Source: Escherichia coli (GTDB lineage Bacteria; Pseudomonadota; Gammaproteobacteria; Enterobacterales; Enterobacteriaceae). Taken from it: DNA of 64,000 nucleotides. Position numbers and translations under genes: made by a program. The stretch lies in the NCBI RefSeq assembly GCF_001677475.2, contig NZ_CP015229.1. One strand, written 5' to 3'. Below, one piece after another: positions 9,650 through 39,702 of this stretch; positions within the stretch are counted from its first letter, which is position 1; each line of letters opens with the position of its first letter. The notes beneath the pieces were generated by a model, which worked only from the letters and a program-made list of their open reading frames with translations, searched no databases and was not told the DNA's origin.

Positions 9650-11971
9650 ATGATGAATGATTCGTTCTGCCGCATTATTGCGGGTGAAATTCAGGCGCGC
9701 CCGGAACAGGTTGAAGCCGCCGTTCGCCTGCTTGACGAAGGGAATACCGTGCCGTTTATCGCACGTTATCGTAAGGAAATCACCGGCGGTCTGGATGACA
9801 CGCAGTTGCGTAATCTGGAAACGCGTCTGAGCTACCTGCGCGAGCTGGAAGAGAGACGTCAGGCGATCCTCAAGTCCATTTCTGAGCAAGGTAAACTCAC
9901 CGATGAGCTGGCGAATGCCATCAACGCCACCTTAAGCAAAACCGAACTCGAAGACCTCTATCTGCCCTACAAACCTAAACGCCGCACCCGTGGGCAAATC
10001 GCCATTGAAGCAGGTCTTGAGCCGTTGGCTGACCTGCTGTGGAGCGATCCGTCACACACGCCAGAAGTCGCCGCTGCACAATATGTTGATGCCGATAAAG
10101 GCGTGGCAGATACCAAAGCTGCGCTGGACGGCGCGCGCTATATCCTGATGGAACGGTTTGCCGAAGATGCCGCGCTGCTGGCAAAAGTGCGTGATTATCT
10201 GTGGAAGAACGCGCATTTGGTTTCTACGGTGGTGAGCGGTAAAGAAGAGGAAGGGGCGAAATTCCGCGACTATTTCGATCATCACGAACCGCTGTCAACG
10301 GTGCCTTCTCACCGCGCGCTGGCGATGTTCCGTGGGCGTAACGAAGGCATACTCCAGCTTTCGCTGAATGCCGATCCACAGTTCGATGAGCCGCCGAAAG
10401 AGAGCTATTGCGAGCAAATCATCATGGATCATCTCGGCCTGCGCCTGAACAATGCCCCGGCGGATAGCTGGCGCAAAGGCGTGGTGAGCTGGACGTGGCG
10501 CATCAAGGTGCTGATGCATCTGGAAACCGAACTGATGGGCACCGTGCGCGAACGTGCGGAAGATGAAGCAATCAACGTCTTTGCCCGTAACCTGCACGAT
10601 CTGCTGATGGCGGCCCCAGCCGGACTGCGTGCCACGATGGGCCTCGATCCGGGTCTGCGTACTGGGGTAAAAGTGGCGGTAGTCGATGCAACCGGCAAAC
10701 TGGTGGCGACCGACACCATTTACCCGCACACCGGACAAGCCGCAAAAGCAGCGATGACCGTTGCTGCCCTGTGTGAAAAGCATAATGTTGAACTGGTGGC
10801 GATCGGCAACGGTACAGCTTCCCGCGAAACTGAGCGTTTCTATCTCGATGTCCAGAAACAGTTCCCAAAAGTGACCGCGCAGAAAGTGATCGTCAGCGAA
10901 GCAGGCGCGTCGGTTTACTCGGCTTCAGAGCTGGCTGCACAGGAGTTCCCGGATCTCGACGTTTCGCTGCGTGGCGCGGTGTCTATCGCCCGCCGTTTGC
11001 AAGATCCGCTGGCGGAGCTGGTGAAAATCGATCCGAAATCTATCGGCGTAGGTCAGTATCAGCATGACGTCAGCCAGACGCAGCTGGCACGCAAACTGGA
11101 TGCAGTAGTAGAAGACTGCGTAAACGCTGTTGGCGTCGATCTCAACACCGCTTCTGTTCCGCTGTTAACCCGCGTGGCGGGCCTGACGCGCATGATGGCG
11201 CAAAACATCGTGGCCTGGCGCGATGAGAACGGTCAGTTCCAGAACCGTCAGCAACTGCTGAAAGTGAGCCGTCTGGGGCCGAAAGCCTTCGAGCAGTGCG
11301 CGGGCTTCCTGCGGATTAACCACGGCGATAACCCGCTTGACGCCTCTACCGTTCACCCGGAAGCCTATCCGGTGGTGGAACGCATTCTGGCAGCAACACA
11401 GCAGGCACTGAAAGATCTGATGGGTAACAGCAGCGAGCTGCGTAACCTGAAAGCGTCTGACTTTACTGATGAAAAATTCGGTGTACCGACGGTAACTGAC
11501 ATCATCAAAGAGCTGGAAAAACCGGGTCGCGATCCGCGTCCGGAATTTAAAACCGCTCAGTTTGCCGATGGCGTCGAGACAATGAACGACCTGCAACCGG
11601 GTATGATCCTCGAAGGCGCAGTGACCAACGTCACCAACTTTGGCGCGTTTGTCGATATCGGCGTGCATCAGGACGGCCTGGTTCACATCTCTTCATTGTC
11701 GAATAAGTTTGTGGAAGATCCGCATACCGTGGTGAAAGCGGGCGATATTGTGAAGGTGAAAGTGCTGGAAGTGGATCTTCAGCGTAAACGTATCGCCCTG
11801 ACCATGCGTCTGGACGAGCAGCCTGGCGAAACCAACGCGCGTCGCGGCGGCGGGAATGAACGTCCGCAAAACAACCGCCCGGCAGCCAAACCGCGTGGGC
11901 GTGAAGCGCAGCCTGCCGGTAACAGCGCGATGATGGATGCGCTGGCGGCGGCAATGGGCAAAAAACGTTAA
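9650..11971 (+). CDS. tex: Tex/YhgF transcription accessory protein (S1 domain, YqgF/RNase H-like and HhH domains)
   Basis: 773-aa ORF; C-terminal S1 domain ([21 protein letters not shown]). Confidence 0.95.
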
Positions 11972-34379: not shown

Positions 34380-34412
34380 TTATGAGCTTTAACGAAAGTG
34401 AATGAGGGCAGC

Positions 34413-35918
34413 ATGGAAACCAAAGATCTGATTGTGATAGGTGGCGGCATCAATGGTGCTGGTATCGCGGCAGACGCCGCTGGACGCGGTTTATCCGTGC
34501 TGATGCTGGAGGCGCAGGATCTCGCTTGTGCGACCTCTTCCGCCAGTTCAAAACTCATTCACGGTGGCCTGCGCTACCTTGAGCACTATGAATTCCGCCT
34601 GGTCAGCGAGGCGCTGGCTGAACGTGAAGTGCTACTGAAAATGGCCCCGCATATCGCCTTCCCGATGCGTTTTCGCCTGCCGCATCGTCCGCATCTGCGC
34701 CCGGCGTGGATGATTCGGATTGGTCTGTTTATGTACGATCATCTGGGTAAACGCACCAGCCTGCCGGGATCAACCGGTTTGCGTTTTGGCGCAAATTCAG
34801 TGTTAAAACCGGAAATTAAGCGCGGATTCGAATATTCCGACTGTTGGGTAGACGACGCCCGTCTGGTACTCGCCAACGCCCAGATGGTGGTGCGTAAAGG
34901 CGGTGAAGTGCTTACCCGGACTCGTGCCACTTCTGCTCGCCGCGAAAACGGCCTGTGGATTGTGGAAGCGGAAGATATCGATACCGGCAAAAAATTCACC
35001 TGGCAGGCGCGCGGCCTGGTTAATGCTACCGGCCCGTGGGTGAAACAGTTCTTCGACGACGGGATGCATCTGCCTTCGCCTTATGGCATTCGCCTGATCA
35101 AAGGCAGCCATATTGTGGTGCCGCGTGTGCATACCCAGAAGCAAGCCTACATTCTGCAAAACGAAGATAAACGTATTGTGTTCGTGATCCCGTGGATGGA
35201 CGAGTTTTCCATCATCGGCACCACCGATGTGGAATACAAAGGCGATCCAAAAGCAGTGAAGATTGAAGAGAGTGAAATCAATTACCTGCTGAAAGTGTAT
35301 AACGCGCACTTTAAAAAACAGTTAAGCCGGGACGATATCGTCTGGACCTACTCCGGCGTGCGCCCGCTGTGTGATGATGAGTCCGATTCGCCGCAGGCTA
35401 TCACTCGTGATTACACCCTTGATATCCATGATGAAAACGGCAAAGCCCCGCTGCTGTCGGTATTCGGCGGTAAGCTGACCACCTACCGCAAACTGGCGGA
35501 ACACGCGCTGGAAAAACTGACGCCATATTATCAGGGCATTGGTCCGGCGTGGACGAAAGAGAGCGTGCTGCCGGGCGGTGCCATTGAAGGCGACCGTGAC
35601 GATTACGCCGCGCGTCTGCGCCGCCGTTACCCATTCCTGACCGAATCGCTGGCACGTCATTACGCACGCACTTACGGCAGCAACAGCGAGCTGTTGCTCG
35701 GCAATGCAGGGGCGATAAGCGACCTCGGGGAGGATTTCGGTCATGAGTTCTACGAAGCGGAGCTGAAATACCTGGTGGATCACGAATGGGTCCGCCGCGC
35801 CGACGATGCCCTGTGGCGTCGCACAAAACAAGGAATGTGGCTGAATGCGGAACAACAATCTCATGTGAGTCAGTGGCTGGTGGAGTATACGCAGCAGAAG
35901 TTGTCGCTGGCGTCGTAA
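34413..35918 (+). CDS. glpD: Aerobic glycerol-3-phosphate dehydrogenase
   Basis: Track ORF 34398..35918; start at ATG 34413 (METKDLIVIGGGINGAGIA, FAD fold); 501 aa. Confidence 0.96.
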   Translation: METKDLIVIGGGINGAGIAADAAGRGLSVLMLEAQDLACATSSASSKLIHGGLRYLEHYEFRLVSEALAEREVLLKMAPHIAFPMRFRLPHRPHLRPAWMIRIGLFMYDHLGKRTSLPGSTGLRFGANSVLKPEIKRGFEYSDCWVDDARLVLANAQMVVRKGGEVLTRTRATSARRENGLWIVEAEDIDTGKKFTWQARGLVNATGPWVKQFFDDGMHLPSPYGIRLIKGSHIVVPRVHTQKQAYILQNEDKRIVFVIPWMDEFSIIGTTDVEYKGDPKAVKIEESEINYLLKVYNAHFKKQLSRDDIVWTYSGVRPLCDDESDSPQAITRDYTLDIHDENGKAPLLSVFGGKLTTYRKLAEHALEKLTPYYQGIGPAWTKESVLPGGAIEGDRDDYAARLRRRYPFLTESLARHYARTYGSNSELLLGNAGAISDLGEDFGHEFYEAELKYLVDHEWVRRADDALWRRTKQGMWLNAEQQSHVSQWLVEYTQQKLSLAS

Positions 35919-35969: not shown

Positions 35970-36575
35970 TTATTGTAAATAATTGAATAACGGCCCCTGA
36001 GCTAAAATCGCCAAACTTAAGCACGTTACCCACTCACCCCATTTCTGCCTCTGGCTTCTATTTTTGCTACACCAATGGCAATAATATCCCAATGCAAAAC
36101 CAACCTGTGCACTAATCGGGCCGACAAAATCAGTCCACGACTGCGGCCAAAAAGGGGAAAAATTCAGGGGAAGCCAGACAAACGTCAGAAAGAAATTTCG
36201 GATATTTTCCAGCAACGCTGATTTCTCTGGAGAAATATAAAGAATGAAATTCGAGAGAATTAACCAGAAATAGACCGGAGAAAAGACCAGCCAGCAATGC
36301 AGTCTGTTTTTTAATTCAGGAGGCGTTCTGCGGGAGAATTGCCAACCGATGCCCCACATTACACTGAAAAAAAATGCATATTCAACCATTAACTCAAGTT
36401 GTAATTCCTGAAGAGAAATACGCACAACCAGGAGCGGAAAGGAGAATGTTATTTCTGCCAGAAAAGTTAACGTGAATATAAGTACGGCTAAGACAATAAC
36501 CGTCGGCCATACCAATACTGGCACGATAACAAAACCGAGAATTACAGGGGGAATATAAAGCCGGAATTTAATCAT
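35970..36575 (-). CDS. Hypothetical small polytopic membrane protein (last gene of uncharacterised four-gene operon)
   Basis: 201-aa ORF with several hydrophobic helices; AGGAAA 7 nt upstream of ATG; 2-nt gap from the upstream gene's stop. Confidence 0.6.
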   Translation of the reverse strand: MIKFRLYIPPVILGFVIVPVLVWPTVIVLAVLIFTLTFLAEITFSFPLLVVRISLQELQLELMVEYAFFFSVMWGIGWQFSRRTPPELKNRLHCWLVFSPVYFWLILSNFILYISPEKSALLENIRNFFLTFVWLPLNFSPFWPQSWTDFVGPISAQVGFALGYYCHWCSKNRSQRQKWGEWVTCLSLAILAQGPLFNYLQ

Positions 36576-36577
36576 TT

Positions 36578-37345
36578 TTATTTTCCTGGTGATTCGGATG
36601 ATGCGTCATACATCGCGCATAAACACTCATCAATCATCCAGTCGTCTACCCAGACCTGATGCTGTGTACCCTGTTCTGGCTGCTTTGGTGGGTTCTCAAT
36701 CGCCTGCCGCGCGCGTTCTTTCAGGATGGATTGATTGTTGAAGGCCCAGGCATTGATTTGGGCGGTAATGGCATTATCGATATCGTCATGGTTATCTCTG
36801 ATATAACCTTCACGATACTGGTTCAATAAACAGGCAAGTGAAGCTGCCGACCAAAAGCCGGGAATTGAATTAACGGCATCAAGCAACGGCGCAATGGCGA
36901 TATCGGCACGGAAAAACATTTCCAGCATATACTGTAATTCGACAGCTTCATCGCCGGATACCCAATCAGCCATATACTGGCAGGCAAATCGCTGCAATAT
37001 TGCCCGTTCATCCGCACGCCAGTTTTCTTTGTTGGCAAGGTTGATACGGCGCAGAGAAAAAACTTCGTGAATATTGTCAAAATACCCCTGTGCAACAAAT
37101 TCCAGTAAACGCGGAAGAAAATAGCGGACCTCATCGCTATTTTGCGGATCGGGTCCTGGGCTACTATTCCAGGCATTGATTAAGGAATACGAGATCGCTC
37201 GTAACGATGTACTCCGTAATACCTTTTGTTCCTGCTGACTCAGGCAATATTCACAACAAACCACAAATTTCTGCGGCACCGGATAGCGACGAAAAATATG
37301 ATAAATCTGCTCAATTAATGCCTGCATGGCGGGGCTGGGTTGCAT
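36578..37345 (-). CDS. Hypothetical soluble protein (third gene of uncharacterised operon); start ambiguous
   Basis: Track ORF 36578..37372 (264 aa); preferred start is the ATG at 37343-37345 (MQPSPAMQALIEQ, 255 aa) preceded by GAGGGGG and 2 nt after the upstream stop. Confidence 0.55.
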   Translation of the reverse strand: MQPSPAMQALIEQIYHIFRRYPVPQKFVVCCEYCLSQQEQKVLRSTSLRAISYSLINAWNSSPGPDPQNSDEVRYFLPRLLEFVAQGYFDNIHEVFSLRRINLANKENWRADERAILQRFACQYMADWVSGDEAVELQYMLEMFFRADIAIAPLLDAVNSIPGFWSAASLACLLNQYREGYIRDNHDDIDNAITAQINAWAFNNQSILKERARQAIENPPKQPEQGTQHQVWVDDWMIDECLCAMYDASSESPGK

Positions 37346-37347
37346 AA

Positions 37348-38055
37348 TTACCCCCTCGCCCGCTGGTCGCATGTAAATGGTTGATAAACCAAACGAGCAT
37401 TCGCCGCATTCAGGCGAATAATGGCACTACGAGAGAGGGAAAAGCTGGGGCGAATGCAATAATTACAGTCCCGACAGCTATCCTCTGTGCAATTTTCCAC
37501 TGAGTAATGACGCGCGTAGAGTTTCAGTTCAGCCTGCTTATCGCGAAATCCGCGTAAACTGTTATCGCTATGAAATTTCCAGGCTTCTTTAAACACCTGA
37601 AAGATATAGACATCCTCAATCCAGGAGTCACATTTTTTAAGCGGGCGCTTTGCTATGATCACCCGCTCCGGGTTTAGCATCGCCGTAAAATGAACGGTGA
37701 AGTCATTTGTCGTATTCAGGTCACATTGAACATCTGGTACATCACTGATATAGGGGTCAAATCCAAAATCAGCACCACAGGCACAAAGACGACCGATCGT
37801 GGTGGTATCGAGGGAAAATCCCGGCCATACATTGCTGGACGTTAAGCCAATATTTAATGTGACATTATATCGAAGCAATCCCTCAAGACCGTCAGCACCG
37901 ACGAACTTTTCCCCTTCATCCAGGACCTGATTAATGAGTTGTTGAACAATACCTTCATCCCAGTATGCCGATTTGCAGTTGGCAATCGTAATATCCACGC
38001 CTGTGAAAGGATCAGTACCAGCGAGGCTTGCAAATAATGTATTAACTAATTCCAT
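37348..38055 (-). CDS. Hypothetical Cys-rich protein (second gene of uncharacterised operon)
   Basis: 235-aa ORF with 10 Cys including cluster C-x4-C-x2-C-x2-C (CTEDSCRDCNYC); 14 nt downstream of the first gene. Confidence 0.6.
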   Translation of the reverse strand: MELVNTLFASLAGTDPFTGVDITIANCKSAYWDEGIVQQLINQVLDEGEKFVGADGLEGLLRYNVTLNIGLTSSNVWPGFSLDTTTIGRLCACGADFGFDPYISDVPDVQCDLNTTNDFTVHFTAMLNPERVIIAKRPLKKCDSWIEDVYIFQVFKEAWKFHSDNSLRGFRDKQAELKLYARHYSVENCTEDSCRDCNYCIRPSFSLSRSAIIRLNAANARLVYQPFTCDQRARG

Positions 38056-38069
38056 TTTTATTACCCGCC

Positions 38070-39587
38070 TTAATGCAACGTTTTATACATCGGCACATAA
38101 CCCACGTCTTCTACCAAACTCTGCCCCTGCGGCGTTAAAAACCATTCAACCAGTTTTTGTGTTTCTGACGTCATATTTTCCCGCGTTACCATAAAGGCAT
38201 CGACGATATAGGGATATTTGCCATTGCGAATGTTTTCCGCAGTCGGTGCAATACCGTTAATCGCTAACAATTTGATATTCTTATCGGCATTCATTTGTGT
38301 TGCGTAATAGCGGAAGGTATAACCTATTGCGTTGTTTGTATTACGGTATTCGGCAACGACTTTAATCATTCCCTCCATCACACTTGCCACTTCGGTTTCC
38401 TGCGGCGAGATCATACGGACATTTTTCATGACCTGTAATTGCATCACCGTCTGACTGCCAGAGTCTTCCGGGCGTTGCCAGGTCTGGATCTCCTGATCGT
38501 TACCGCCAACAGTACGCCAGTTGGTAATTGCGCCACTAAAAATGTCTCGCACTTGTTGTTCAGTCAGGGAATTGACTGGATTATCAGCATTGACGATAAA
38601 AACAAATGCTTCACGGGCAAAGGGGGTGTACAGCAAAGTGACACCAGATTCCTTTGCACGTTTTTTCTGCCCACCGGAAGGTTGCGCCACGAAAATAATA
38701 TCAGCATCACCCTTAACGATTTTGTTATATGCTTCTGGCGTACGAGAGTTATCCAGATAATCCCAAACGTGAAAATCCTCTGGTATTATGCTTAACGCAT
38801 AAAAGGCAGAAGCATAAATTGGGTACGCCGCCGTGGCACCATCGATTCGCGGCCAGTTTTGCGTAAACTGAATTTGCGGTTTGCCACGCAGCGGCGTCAG
38901 TCGATTATTGAGTTTATCGGGTCGCCAGGCCCAGATATCAATATTTTCGCGTACACCAACACCAGGGTTTTGCTGCTTATATAAATGGGCCTGATACCCA
39001 GCGACAATACCAAGTAAGAGAAGTAGAAACAGGAGTAAGTTACGGCAACGTAGCCCGGACGTGCCGGTTAAAGGATGCCTTGTCGGCCAGCCGTATCCCA
39101 GCGAAAAACTGATATGCGTTCCAACGGGAATAATGACTATCCACCAGTACTCACCACCGACTAATGAGACTAACAAAACACCCAGCCAGGGAAGCATAAG
39201 ATCTGCCAACCAACCTGAAACCATCTGGCGAAATTGATAATCTGCCAGATGTAGCGTGATTATCCAGCCAACCAGGATTAATAAAGCAGGAACTAAAAAA
39301 AGACATTGTCGCCAGGCGGCTATTTCTCTGTTTTCTGGTGCGCTATCGCCCGCCCACACTCGCCCAGAGAAAAATAGCAGTAATGCGCCCAGCGTCAGCA
39401 TAAAGACGTTAAGTAGAAGATAAATTGTTGGCGTAAAGAGTAAATTGCAAAACTCAAGAATAGCGGCAAGCCCGGCCCCCAGCATGGCAATAACCGCCGC
39501 CAAAAACTGCGCCAGAATGGGGATGCCGAAAAAAGTCATTACCAGCGAGGTCAAAATCCATTTTCTGTTTTGCATTATTCTTTCCAT
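38070..39587 (-). CDS. Membrane-anchored PstS-like (PBP-like) substrate-binding-domain protein (first gene of uncharacterised operon); probably the intact form of K-12 pseudogene yzgL
   Basis: 505-aa ORF; N-terminal ~190 aa with multiple hydrophobic helices; C-terminal part with phosphate-binding-protein-like motifs (LTEQQVRDIFSGAITNWRTVGG); alternative start at Met5 (39575). Confidence 0.7.
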   Translation of the reverse strand: MERIMQNRKWILTSLVMTFFGIPILAQFLAAVIAMLGAGLAAILEFCNLLFTPTIYLLLNVFMLTLGALLLFFSGRVWAGDSAPENREIAAWRQCLFLVPALLILVGWIITLHLADYQFRQMVSGWLADLMLPWLGVLLVSLVGGEYWWIVIIPVGTHISFSLGYGWPTRHPLTGTSGLRCRNLLLFLLLLLGIVAGYQAHLYKQQNPGVGVRENIDIWAWRPDKLNNRLTPLRGKPQIQFTQNWPRIDGATAAYPIYASAFYALSIIPEDFHVWDYLDNSRTPEAYNKIVKGDADIIFVAQPSGGQKKRAKESGVTLLYTPFAREAFVFIVNADNPVNSLTEQQVRDIFSGAITNWRTVGGNDQEIQTWQRPEDSGSQTVMQLQVMKNVRMISPQETEVASVMEGMIKVVAEYRNTNNAIGYTFRYYATQMNADKNIKLLAINGIAPTAENIRNGKYPYIVDAFMVTRENMTSETQKLVEWFLTPQGQSLVEDVGYVPMYKTLH

Positions 39588-39604: not shown

Positions 39605-39610
39605 ATTATA
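39605..39610 (-). promoter_or_regulatory. Candidate -10 hexamer for the uncharacterised four-gene operon
   Basis: Minus strand TATAAT about 18-23 nt upstream of the first ATG and downstream of the glgP terminator; no good -35. Confidence 0.35.
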
Positions 39611-39659: not shown

Positions 39660-39684
39660 AAAAAAACGGGACCCTTTGGCCCCG
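39660..39684 (-). terminator. Rho-independent terminator after glgP
   Basis: Minus strand CGGGGCCaaagGGTCCCG (one G-U pair) followed by seven T. Confidence 0.75.
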
Positions 39685-39702
39685 CTCTATTTATTAGTGA
39701 AA

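Follow-up and report, generated by a model that had tools for sequence, protein, structure and literature searches.

What a binding domain of the PstS type does when it is attached to a membrane domain of its own, with no transporter beside it, is the question raised by yzgL, a gene found intact in a 64-kb stretch of Escherichia coli DNA (64,000 nucleotides of contig NZ_CP015229.1, RefSeq assembly GCF_001677475.2; the whole stretch is referred to below as the window). The gene order in this region is glpR-glpG-glpE, glpD, four minus-strand genes (yzgL among them) and glgP-glgA-glgC-glgX. The neighbour of yzgL on its upstream side is glgP, and on its downstream side there are three genes without a Pfam family, followed by glpD. 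In RefSeq the gene is labelled 'PstS family phosphate ABC transporter substrate-binding protein' (ABC, ATP-binding cassette).

The original prediction for this locus described a polytopic membrane domain joined to a PstS-like binding domain without partner transporter genes, and suggested a sensor, receptor or scaffold. Our analysis confirmed this architecture and revealed that it is general in the family to which yzgL belongs. The functional proposal is compatible with the results, so that the interpretation as a whole is supported in part. We tentatively regard yzgL as encoding a periplasmic receptor, tethered to the membrane and independent of a transporter, for an oxyanion of the phosphate type, a reading to which we would give not quite an even chance and in which the ligand class and the signalling are what we infer. 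The 505-codon open reading frame (ORF), recognized from the ORF list and its translation, and its parts are as follows.

38070..39587, minus strand: yzgL coding sequence (Met1 at 39587, 505 aa; Met5 at 39575, 501 aa)
38070-38072, minus strand: stop codon of yzgL
38970..39587, minus strand: polytopic membrane domain, residues 1-206 (from hydropathy, AlphaFold2 helices and family counts of lysine plus arginine, K+R)
38853..38969, minus strand: hydrophilic linker, residues 207-245 (from hydropathy; lower pLDDT, the predicted local distance difference test score, and little secondary structure in the model)
38073..38852, minus strand: PstS-like type II periplasmic binding domain, residues 246-505 (from Pfam PF12849, PDB sequence and fold matches, hhalign to PstS and invariant columns)

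Binding domain and membrane anchor of the yzgL protein

A phosphate-binding-type fold had been proposed for residues ~230-505, and all of the peptides quoted in its support (including FVAQPSGG and GYVPMYK) are present in the translation. The proposal is borne out by several lines of evidence. The Pfam family PBP_like_2 (PF12849) matched residues 247-485 with an E-value of 8.4e-30 (model positions 13-265 of 267), and the pLDDT of the AlphaFold2 model was >90 across most of residues 246-505. The best solved structures, by sequence as well as by fold, were phosphate-binding proteins (4q8r/4gd5, 1twy, 4exl, 9l8j), although the identity of the domain to solved PstS proteins is about 16-22%. Foldseek assigned a probability of 1.00 to 9l8j, 4gd5, 1twy and 4exl, and the top 42 PDB matches were all phosphate-binding proteins. 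The C-terminal domain thus models as a type II periplasmic binding fold.

The binding pocket was mapped by hhalign alignment with E. coli PstS, in which T10 corresponds to T252 of the yzgL protein, F11 to A253, S38 to T283, R135 to R372, and S139/G140/T141 to S376/G377/S378. Counterparts of seven of the eight phosphate ligands of PstS are kept. The eighth, Asp56, aligns to Ala301, in a register that is provisional and may be off by 1-2 residues (hhalign probability of the alignment, 31%). The mapped pocket residues were invariant or nearly so in alignments of 22 and 23 sequences spanning several phyla, and no conserved acidic residue was found in or near the Asp56-equivalent strand in the family alignments. 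Asp56 of PstS is the acceptor that confers specificity for protonated inorganic phosphate.

The score of the protein on TIGR02136 (the PstS family) was 121.2 bits, below the NCBI curated cut-off of 206.6; its paralogues scored 125-130 bits, and no match to TIGR00975 was reported in the NCBIfam scan. As originally claimed, transporter genes are absent from the vicinity: none lies near yzgL in the window, nor at the corresponding loci of Klebsiella, Salmonella, Budviciaceae and Rahnella. Moreover, no pstCAB, ABC permease or ATPase gene was linked to a family member among the neighbours in 80 related loci, and neither Pfam nor NCBIfam assigned the yzgL protein to a permease family. The sub-threshold score, the family-wide replacement of Asp56 and the lack of pstCAB argue that this is not a true PstS: on sequence criteria, the protein has the PstS fold but fails the defining features of the PstS family. 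Its automatic name, PstS or phosphate ABC transporter protein, is probably misleading.

In the N-terminal part, strongly hydrophobic stretches span residues 10-201 (Kyte-Doolittle), and the AlphaFold2 model (built on 22 homologues; mean pLDDT 84) contains helices at residues 2-46, 53-79, 87-114, 132-144, 149-169 and 177-206. The hydrophobic segments originally placed at residues ~1-190 are therefore confirmed, except that the membrane part ends near residue 206. The mean numbers of K+R in successive loops were 2.1 / 0.45 / 2.9 / 0.8 / 4.5 in the close family of yzgL, 2.2 / 0.29 / 3.83 in three-helix relatives (n=35) and 4.4 / 1.0 / 3.0 / 0.6 / 4.6 in five-helix relatives (n=17). These positive-inside counts alternate family-wide in an N-in/C-out sense, which places the binding domain outside the cytoplasm. 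Lipoprotein paralogues that carry export signals and share 58-65% identity with the yzgL protein were counted as further support. We therefore favour a predicted anchor of six helices with about five crossings, N-in/C-out, of which the short helix 132-144 probably provides no crossing of its own, and a PstS-like domain with a predicted location in the periplasm, at the outer surface of the inner membrane. A seven-helix topology, suggested by hydropathy only, was dropped in favour of the arrangement indicated by the family charge counts and the AlphaFold2 helices.

A profile of the membrane domain matched 170 proteins among 1.84 billion representatives. Every match of at least 460 aa bears the same periplasmic binding protein (PBP) domain, and the remainder are fragments or free copies, which identifies the membrane and binding domains as an obligate pair rather than a chance fusion. 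The idea that this membrane domain might also be fused to domains of other types was rejected, since the search yielded this architecture, fragments and free copies alone. The profile marks the anchor as a module specific to this family, rarely seen apart from this clade of PBPs. Its near-invariant positions are few (P23, G75, W108 and Q199).

The family itself is large. A two-motif scan for the binding domain, covering one genome per species, detected loci in at least 578 species (32-47% identity), and 80 of these were kept for detailed analysis. The family occurs in Enterobacterales, Pasteurellaceae, Betaproteobacteria, Campylobacterota, Bacillota, Actinomycetota, Bacteroidota, Planctomycetota and spirochaetes. 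In the 80 loci nearly all members have three to six helices ahead of the PBP domain, and the N-terminal region comes in two sizes: (i) a long form of 220-260 residues with 5-6 helices and (ii) a short form of 125-160 residues with 3-4 helices. Proteins with this anchor-PBP architecture are also present in the AlphaFold database from Lactobacillaceae, Clostridia and Propionibacteriales. The chromosomal slot of the yzgL-type gene is the same in at least seven genera of enterobacteria.

All-against-all clustering of the 535 neighbour proteins from the 80 loci revealed no conserved partner gene. The recurrences observed were weak: an XRE regulator in 6 loci, GGDEF proteins in 6 and histidine kinases in 5. 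In six Bacillota loci (L065, L066, L072, L083, L087 and L095; just upstream of position 10001), belonging to Psychrobacillus, Jeotgalibacillus, Sporosarcina and an Oscillospiraceae metagenome-assembled genome (MAG), a gene of ~150 aa for an XRE-type helix-turn-helix protein lies directly upstream of a short-form anchored PBP gene, on the same strand. The two may form a regulator-sensor pair.

The composition of these neighbourhoods also bears on the possibility that the yzgL protein is an auxiliary component of uptake. The tethered domain could pass phosphate or a phosphate ester to an unlinked importer (PstCAB, UgpAEC), or the membrane domain and a free paralogue of it (described below) could together constitute a binding-protein-dependent secondary carrier. 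The PstS-like fold and the retention of most phosphate ligands are in line with uptake, other importer classes have binding domains fused or tethered to membrane components, and the free paralogue indicates that the membrane module can be a separate subunit. New types of binding-protein-dependent carriers are still being reported, as in PMC12344293. However, a permease or an ATPase is linked to the family neither in the window nor in the 80 loci, the PstS model is matched at 121 instead of 206.6 bits, and Asp56 is absent. In addition, conservation of the membrane domain is low, without conserved positions of charged or polar character, and in many relatives it has only three helices, all of which is unlike a carrier; K-12 and ~38% of complete E. 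coli genomes can dispense with yzgL. A role in uptake is thus improbable.

The receptor reading accommodates these observations as follows. By the predicted topology, the anchor, N-in/C-out and with about five spans, holds a Venus-flytrap domain of the PstS type at the periplasmic face of the inner membrane, and this domain would close on a tetrahedral phosphate-type oxyanion. Because Asp56 is missing, a phosphate ester, or a phosphoryl group borne by the membrane or envelope, would be a likelier ligand than free inorganic phosphate. Closure could then be read out in the membrane, whether by the anchor to which the domain is fused, by the separately encoded paralogue of that anchor or by a partner encoded elsewhere, which would make the yzgL protein an envelope receptor or sensor and not an uptake component. 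That the anchored form is ancient, widespread and conserves its pocket suggests a conserved ligand-binding role other than transport.

Several facts weigh against this interpretation: (i) invariant polar positions are nearly absent from the membrane domain, which would suit a plain anchor equally with a signalling module; (ii) the alignment with PstS has the low probability given above, and with it the assignment of Asp56 to an alanine may shift; (iii) the protein evolves fast, with about 50-55% identity between genera at the syntenic locus; and (iv) deep allelic divergence, tandem paralogues and frequent loss in E. coli are typical of conflict genes and less so of housekeeping sensors.

The glgP-glpD islet in E. 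coli

The first homologue search with yzgL returned 1774 homologues, and comparison with another E. coli allele gave a ratio of nonsynonymous to synonymous substitution rates (dN/dS) of 0.108 overall, at a dS of 0.42 (0.20 in the membrane part and 0.056 in the binding domain). Accordingly, yzgL is a real gene, not a chance ORF, and it is under purifying selection. Its translation start had been left undecided between Met1 and Met5. Since relatives open with M(Q/K)N.KW and a GGAAAG lies 7 nt ahead of Met5 (39575), the latter appears slightly favoured; the Met1 codon is also retained in some alleles, and nothing else hinges on the choice.

Comparison with K-12 indicates that the window gene is the intact form of the pseudogene yzgL (b3427). 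Strains of the K-12 type retain about the first 78 yzgL codons (window 39353-39587) together with the final 20 codons of the fourth gene, which encodes an anchor-only protein. These remnants imply a deletion of ~3.3 kb, extending from inside yzgL into the anchor-only gene. Other broken copies carry an insertion of IS1 (strain H38) or a frameshift (E. albertii NBRC 107761). It could be argued from these three kinds of lesion that yzgL is a decaying or functionless accessory gene. The dN/dS values given above, the conservation of the pocket across phyla and the presence of full-length copies in 3347 complete E. coli genomes speak against decay, which we consider very improbable.

The 3347 genomes that carry at least 80% of yzgL at the glgP|glpD locus represent 62% of the 5426 complete E. 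coli genomes. Carriers of the intact gene include ST131 and O157:H7 Sakai, where it is annotated as 'membrane protein' (ECs_4272), and the genes that RefSeq assigns to the 'PstS family' between glgP and glpD are orthologues of the window gene. Within E. coli the locus is polymorphic: strains differ in whether yzgL is intact, has been replaced or duplicated, or is missing through deletion. The allele of the window is not a common one: 39 of the complete genomes have a copy at least 99% identical to it, most copies are 89-92% identical, and the DNA identity of the allele of strain TA054 is merely 66%. Synonymous divergence between alleles is 0.42 for yzgL versus 0.05 for glgP, and the G+C content of the four-gene islet is 0.42-0.48 versus 0.50-0.57 in its flanks. 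The flanking genes glgP, glgA and glpG of the window are 98.4-99.4% identical to those of other E. coli strains, which marks the window itself as E. coli DNA. For glpD (window 34398-35918) the identity to other E. coli alleles is lower (95.8-96.5%; dS 0.165), and the divergent allelic tract centred on yzgL seems to extend into this gene, a pattern that points to linked polymorphism near the islet or to recombination that took place long ago. A literature search for yzgL, ECs4270-4272, Sll0540 and anchored or orphan PstS found no study of the yzgL protein.

The three genes that follow yzgL are tightly packed with it in a four-gene operon (gaps of 14 nt and 2 nt, and one overlap).

37348..38055, minus strand: 235-aa gene, starting 14 nt past the yzgL stop; cytoplasmic, Cys-rich protein
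36578..37372, minus strand: 264-aa gene (255 aa from the RefSeq start), overlapping the end of the 235-aa gene
35970..36575, minus strand: 201-aa membrane-protein gene, by alignment a free-standing paralogue of the yzgL membrane domain

No Pfam or NCBIfam family was found for the 264-aa and 201-aa proteins, and no Pfam family for the 235-aa protein. The genes of the 235-aa and 264-aa proteins are syntenic with a yzgL-type gene in Pseudocitrobacter, and the former also in Klebsiella oxytoca.

The 201-aa protein aligned co-linearly with the yzgL membrane domain (hhalign E 4.7e-4). Two of its relatives, P0235 (64% identical) and P0208 (33%), were matched by the membrane-domain profile with E-values of 7e-6 and 6.5e-9, respectively, in the library of 1.84 billion proteins, and the membrane region encoded by the yzgL-type gene of Salmonella could be aligned with P0208. 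These profile alignments identify the 201-aa protein as a free-standing paralogue of the anchor. The genes of O157 Sakai and Escherichia sp. E1V33 are arranged in the sequence anchored PBP, lipoprotein PBP and anchor-only protein (ECs_4270 in Sakai), which looks like fused and split copies of one two-part module side by side. The lipoprotein PBP paralogue of O157:H7 Sakai (ECs_4271; L103 2468-3460) is annotated as 'ABC transporter ATP-binding protein', and several UniProt entries of the family are named 'ATP binding protein of ABC transporter'. Such ATP-binding names on PBP paralogues are evidently wrong.

In RefSeq the 235-aa gene is labelled 'YbbD family protein'. Its product resembles NF007301 over its first 45 residues only, and the view that it is an immunity protein of the YbbD family was rejected on account of this confinement. 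NF007301 (like Pfam 'YbbD_head') is modelled on a Salmonella ORF in which the first 44 codons of the 235-aa family are fused to a 139-aa lipoprotein with an LTAC lipobox. K. oxytoca encodes a gene of the 235-aa family and the lipoprotein separately, and ybbD of K-12 matches the lipoprotein part alone. The label therefore looks like an artefact of the model. The loci compared were the following.

Window, 37348-38055, minus strand: the 235-aa gene
L006, 9564-10109
L003, 9838-10958
L102, 7641-8131

Two possible signals were recognized between glgP and yzgL, which are separated by ~115 nt in the window.

39605..39610, minus strand: TATAAT, a -10-like hexamer ~18 nt before Met1 (read by eye; tentative)
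about 39660-39686, minus strand: GC-rich hairpin with a run of seven T residues (T7), after the glgP stop codon (read by eye; tentative)

A consensus scan listed neither of them, so that both are tentative, and no good -35 partner of the hexamer was recognizable. In K-12 the promoter region of yzgL is transcribed, and the gene appears with a value of -2.0 in the CpxR-regulon section of a K-12 transcriptome (array) table (PMC2731931).

Lipoprotein paralogues and an Rhs toxin

In Enterobacteriaceae the yzgL-type proteins have paralogues of ~330 aa with a lipoprotein signal in place of the anchor and an intact pocket (58-65% identical to the yzgL protein). In a type VI secretion system (T6SS) cluster of E. 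albertii (VipAB, Hcp, VgrG), a PBP lipoprotein gene, P0079, is separated by 84-105 nt from a preceding PAAR-Rhs gene, an interval that leaves no room for a further ORF. A second Rhs gene follows P0079. The last ~130 residues of the PAAR-Rhs protein form an unclassified C-terminal toxin domain; the rhs gene is frameshifted in the strain examined. In Salmonella, the same toxin domain occurs as an orphan (62% identity) in an islet at the yegQ locus, with a PBP lipoprotein gene directly after it; Ntox34, HEAT-repeat genes and a PAAR fragment belong to the surrounding array. The islet is apparently the 'Paratyphi C islet', of a type discussed as T6SS-related (PMC7400221). A third array repeats the pairing, and identity within the toxin family is 62-68% across the arrays. 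Copies of the toxin domain were located as follows.

L021, 9498-9896: Rhs C-terminal toxin domain, E. albertii
L017, 4439-4993: Rhs C-terminal toxin domain
L105, 1106-1510: Rhs C-terminal toxin domain
L106, 9001-9396: Rhs C-terminal toxin domain

In every case whose context was examined, a PBP_like_2 lipoprotein gene follows the toxin homologue (P0079, a P0075-like gene and the gene after P0260 occupy the position right after it). The toxin domain has conserved THTF, YSWGN, ENEH and RNCK motifs and three conserved cysteines. Its structural model shows a weak similarity to TseH, a cysteine hydrolase of T6SS, and to papain-like enzymes of the PPPDE/LRAT type, and no sequence match to it was found in Pfam, NCBIfam or PDB. 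In E. coli EC42405 the insertion of a different Rhs C-terminal toxin, along with a small gene of its own, has turned the PBP lipoprotein gene downstream of it into a displaced orphan.

These pairings raise the possibility that yzgL-type proteins, like the lipoprotein paralogues, neutralize an Rhs/T6SS toxin acting in the periplasm, either by binding it directly or by occupying a phosphoryl-bearing target in the envelope, and that the glgP|glpD islet is a store of orphan immunity genes. Besides the position of P0079, the repetition of the arrangement in the two further arrays, its occurrence for all toxin homologues with examined context, and the displaced orphan of EC42405, such a role would be in keeping with (i) the TseH/papain-like toxin model, which together with the conserved His and Asn-Cys motifs may fit a periplasmic target, (ii) tandem arrays of yzgL-type and lipoprotein genes in the glgP|glpD slot of TA054, O157 Sakai and E1V33, (iii) the YbbD lipoprotein gene, which follows a yzgL-type gene in the Klebsiella and Salmonella islet and whose K-12 copy lies directly after the orphan Rhs fragment ylbH, and (iv) the reduced G+C content, deeply diverged alleles and frequent loss of the islet. 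In TA054 the slot contains one anchored copy, two shorter PBP copies and small unclassified genes. Tandem arrays of two to four anchored or lipoprotein PBP paralogues occur in unrelated taxa.

L019/L020, 6988-13064: tandem PBP array, E. coli TA054
L027, 208-3382: tandem PBP array, Intestinirhabdus
L042, 1675-8598: tandem PBP array, Helicobacteraceae MAG

However, yzgL of the window follows glgP and does not lie immediately downstream of a toxin. No ORF of Rhs/T6SS size is apparent in the window, as judged from the ORF list and gene order and not from a domain search, and a toxin remnant between glgP and yzgL is implausible because the gap is too short. In a tblastn search of the related loci (the window was not included) for toxin remnants near yzgL-type genes, the E. 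albertii and Salmonella arrays were the only matches. The anchored form is ancient and widespread, reaching Gram-positive phyla that lack T6SS, and among relatives of 40-47% identity its pocket shows strong conservation, unlike fast-evolving, toxin-specific immunity proteins. It also keeps the same chromosomal slot in the enterobacterial genera mentioned above. The PADLOC defence library contained no match to yzgL, PHROGs yielded just the generic phage PstS family, and the E. albertii rhs gene is itself frameshifted. Our search of the literature on Rhs, PstS and immunity found no description of a binding-protein fold serving as immunity. On balance, immunity as the function of yzgL itself is the strongest alternative to the receptor reading, yet a rather unlikely one.

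In the receptor reading, which we still favour, the yzgL clade would in Enterobacteriaceae have been drawn into interbacterial conflict. A more speculative synthesis, doubtful as a whole, would join the two lines. According to it, the clade is an envelope module, composed of the family membrane domain and the Asp56-less PstS-like domain, that recognizes a phosphoryl-bearing molecule; its lipoprotein offshoots would be a new immunity class with a binding-protein fold, directed against a papain-like Rhs toxin, the E. coli islet would be an ancestral or orphan protective locus against toxins that act in the periplasm, and the target of the toxin would be linked to the YzgL ligand.

The family among known systems

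The family is large, present in Gram-positive and Gram-negative bacteria and apparently unstudied, and in it a binding fold works without a transporter. Thousands of genomes carry the probably wrong label of a 'phosphate ABC transporter substrate-binding protein', an error that metabolic reconstructions inherit. The ligand of the yzgL family could reveal a new envelope-sensing input. It is worth mentioning that K-12 lacks an intact yzgL, so that standard laboratory strains are natural knockouts; yzgL of K-12 (b3427) is the same gene at the same locus, and the window supplies the complete gene with the three downstream genes. The lipoprotein paralogue and the unclassified Rhs toxin form a concrete candidate toxin-antidote pair, and possibly a route to the function of the family. 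Three things are new in this analysis: a paralogue of the anchor encoded on its own, the occurrence of the module in both fused and split form, and the association of PBP lipoproteins with an Rhs toxin.

Among fused ABC importers, such as GlnPQ and OpuA, and among binding proteins that act as co-sensors, the binding fold is kept at the membrane surface, as in the yzgL protein. In contrast to the fused importers, the yzgL membrane domain matches no importer family and has no ATPase partner. Non-transport signalling by binding proteins is established in general for the co-sensor class, and solute-binding proteins as co-sensors for kinases, chemoreceptors and GGDEF proteins are reviewed in PMC8050422. 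The yzgL family differs from this class in that a cognate kinase or cyclase is not consistently adjacent (5-6 of 80 loci each). With the periplasmic immunity proteins of T6SS (rhsI), the PBP lipoprotein paralogues share the position after a toxin, predicted export and persistence as displaced orphans, whereas yzgL of the window is not beside a toxin and its clade retains a small-molecule pocket.

The closest relation is to PstS of the PstSCAB system of E. coli (1IXH/2ABH), with which the yzgL protein shares the type II fold, the GAT...helix, the (S/T) helix-cap, the R-x-x-x-S-G-(T/S) motif and an extracytoplasmic site (predicted for yzgL). It differs from PstS in having a polytopic anchor instead of a cleaved signal peptide or lipid, no pstCAB neighbours, alanine for Asp56, and 121 instead of 206.6 bits on the family model. 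The yzgL family, hitherto known by annotation, is thus a variant of the PstS kind, set apart by a dedicated polytopic partner domain and by independence from a transporter.

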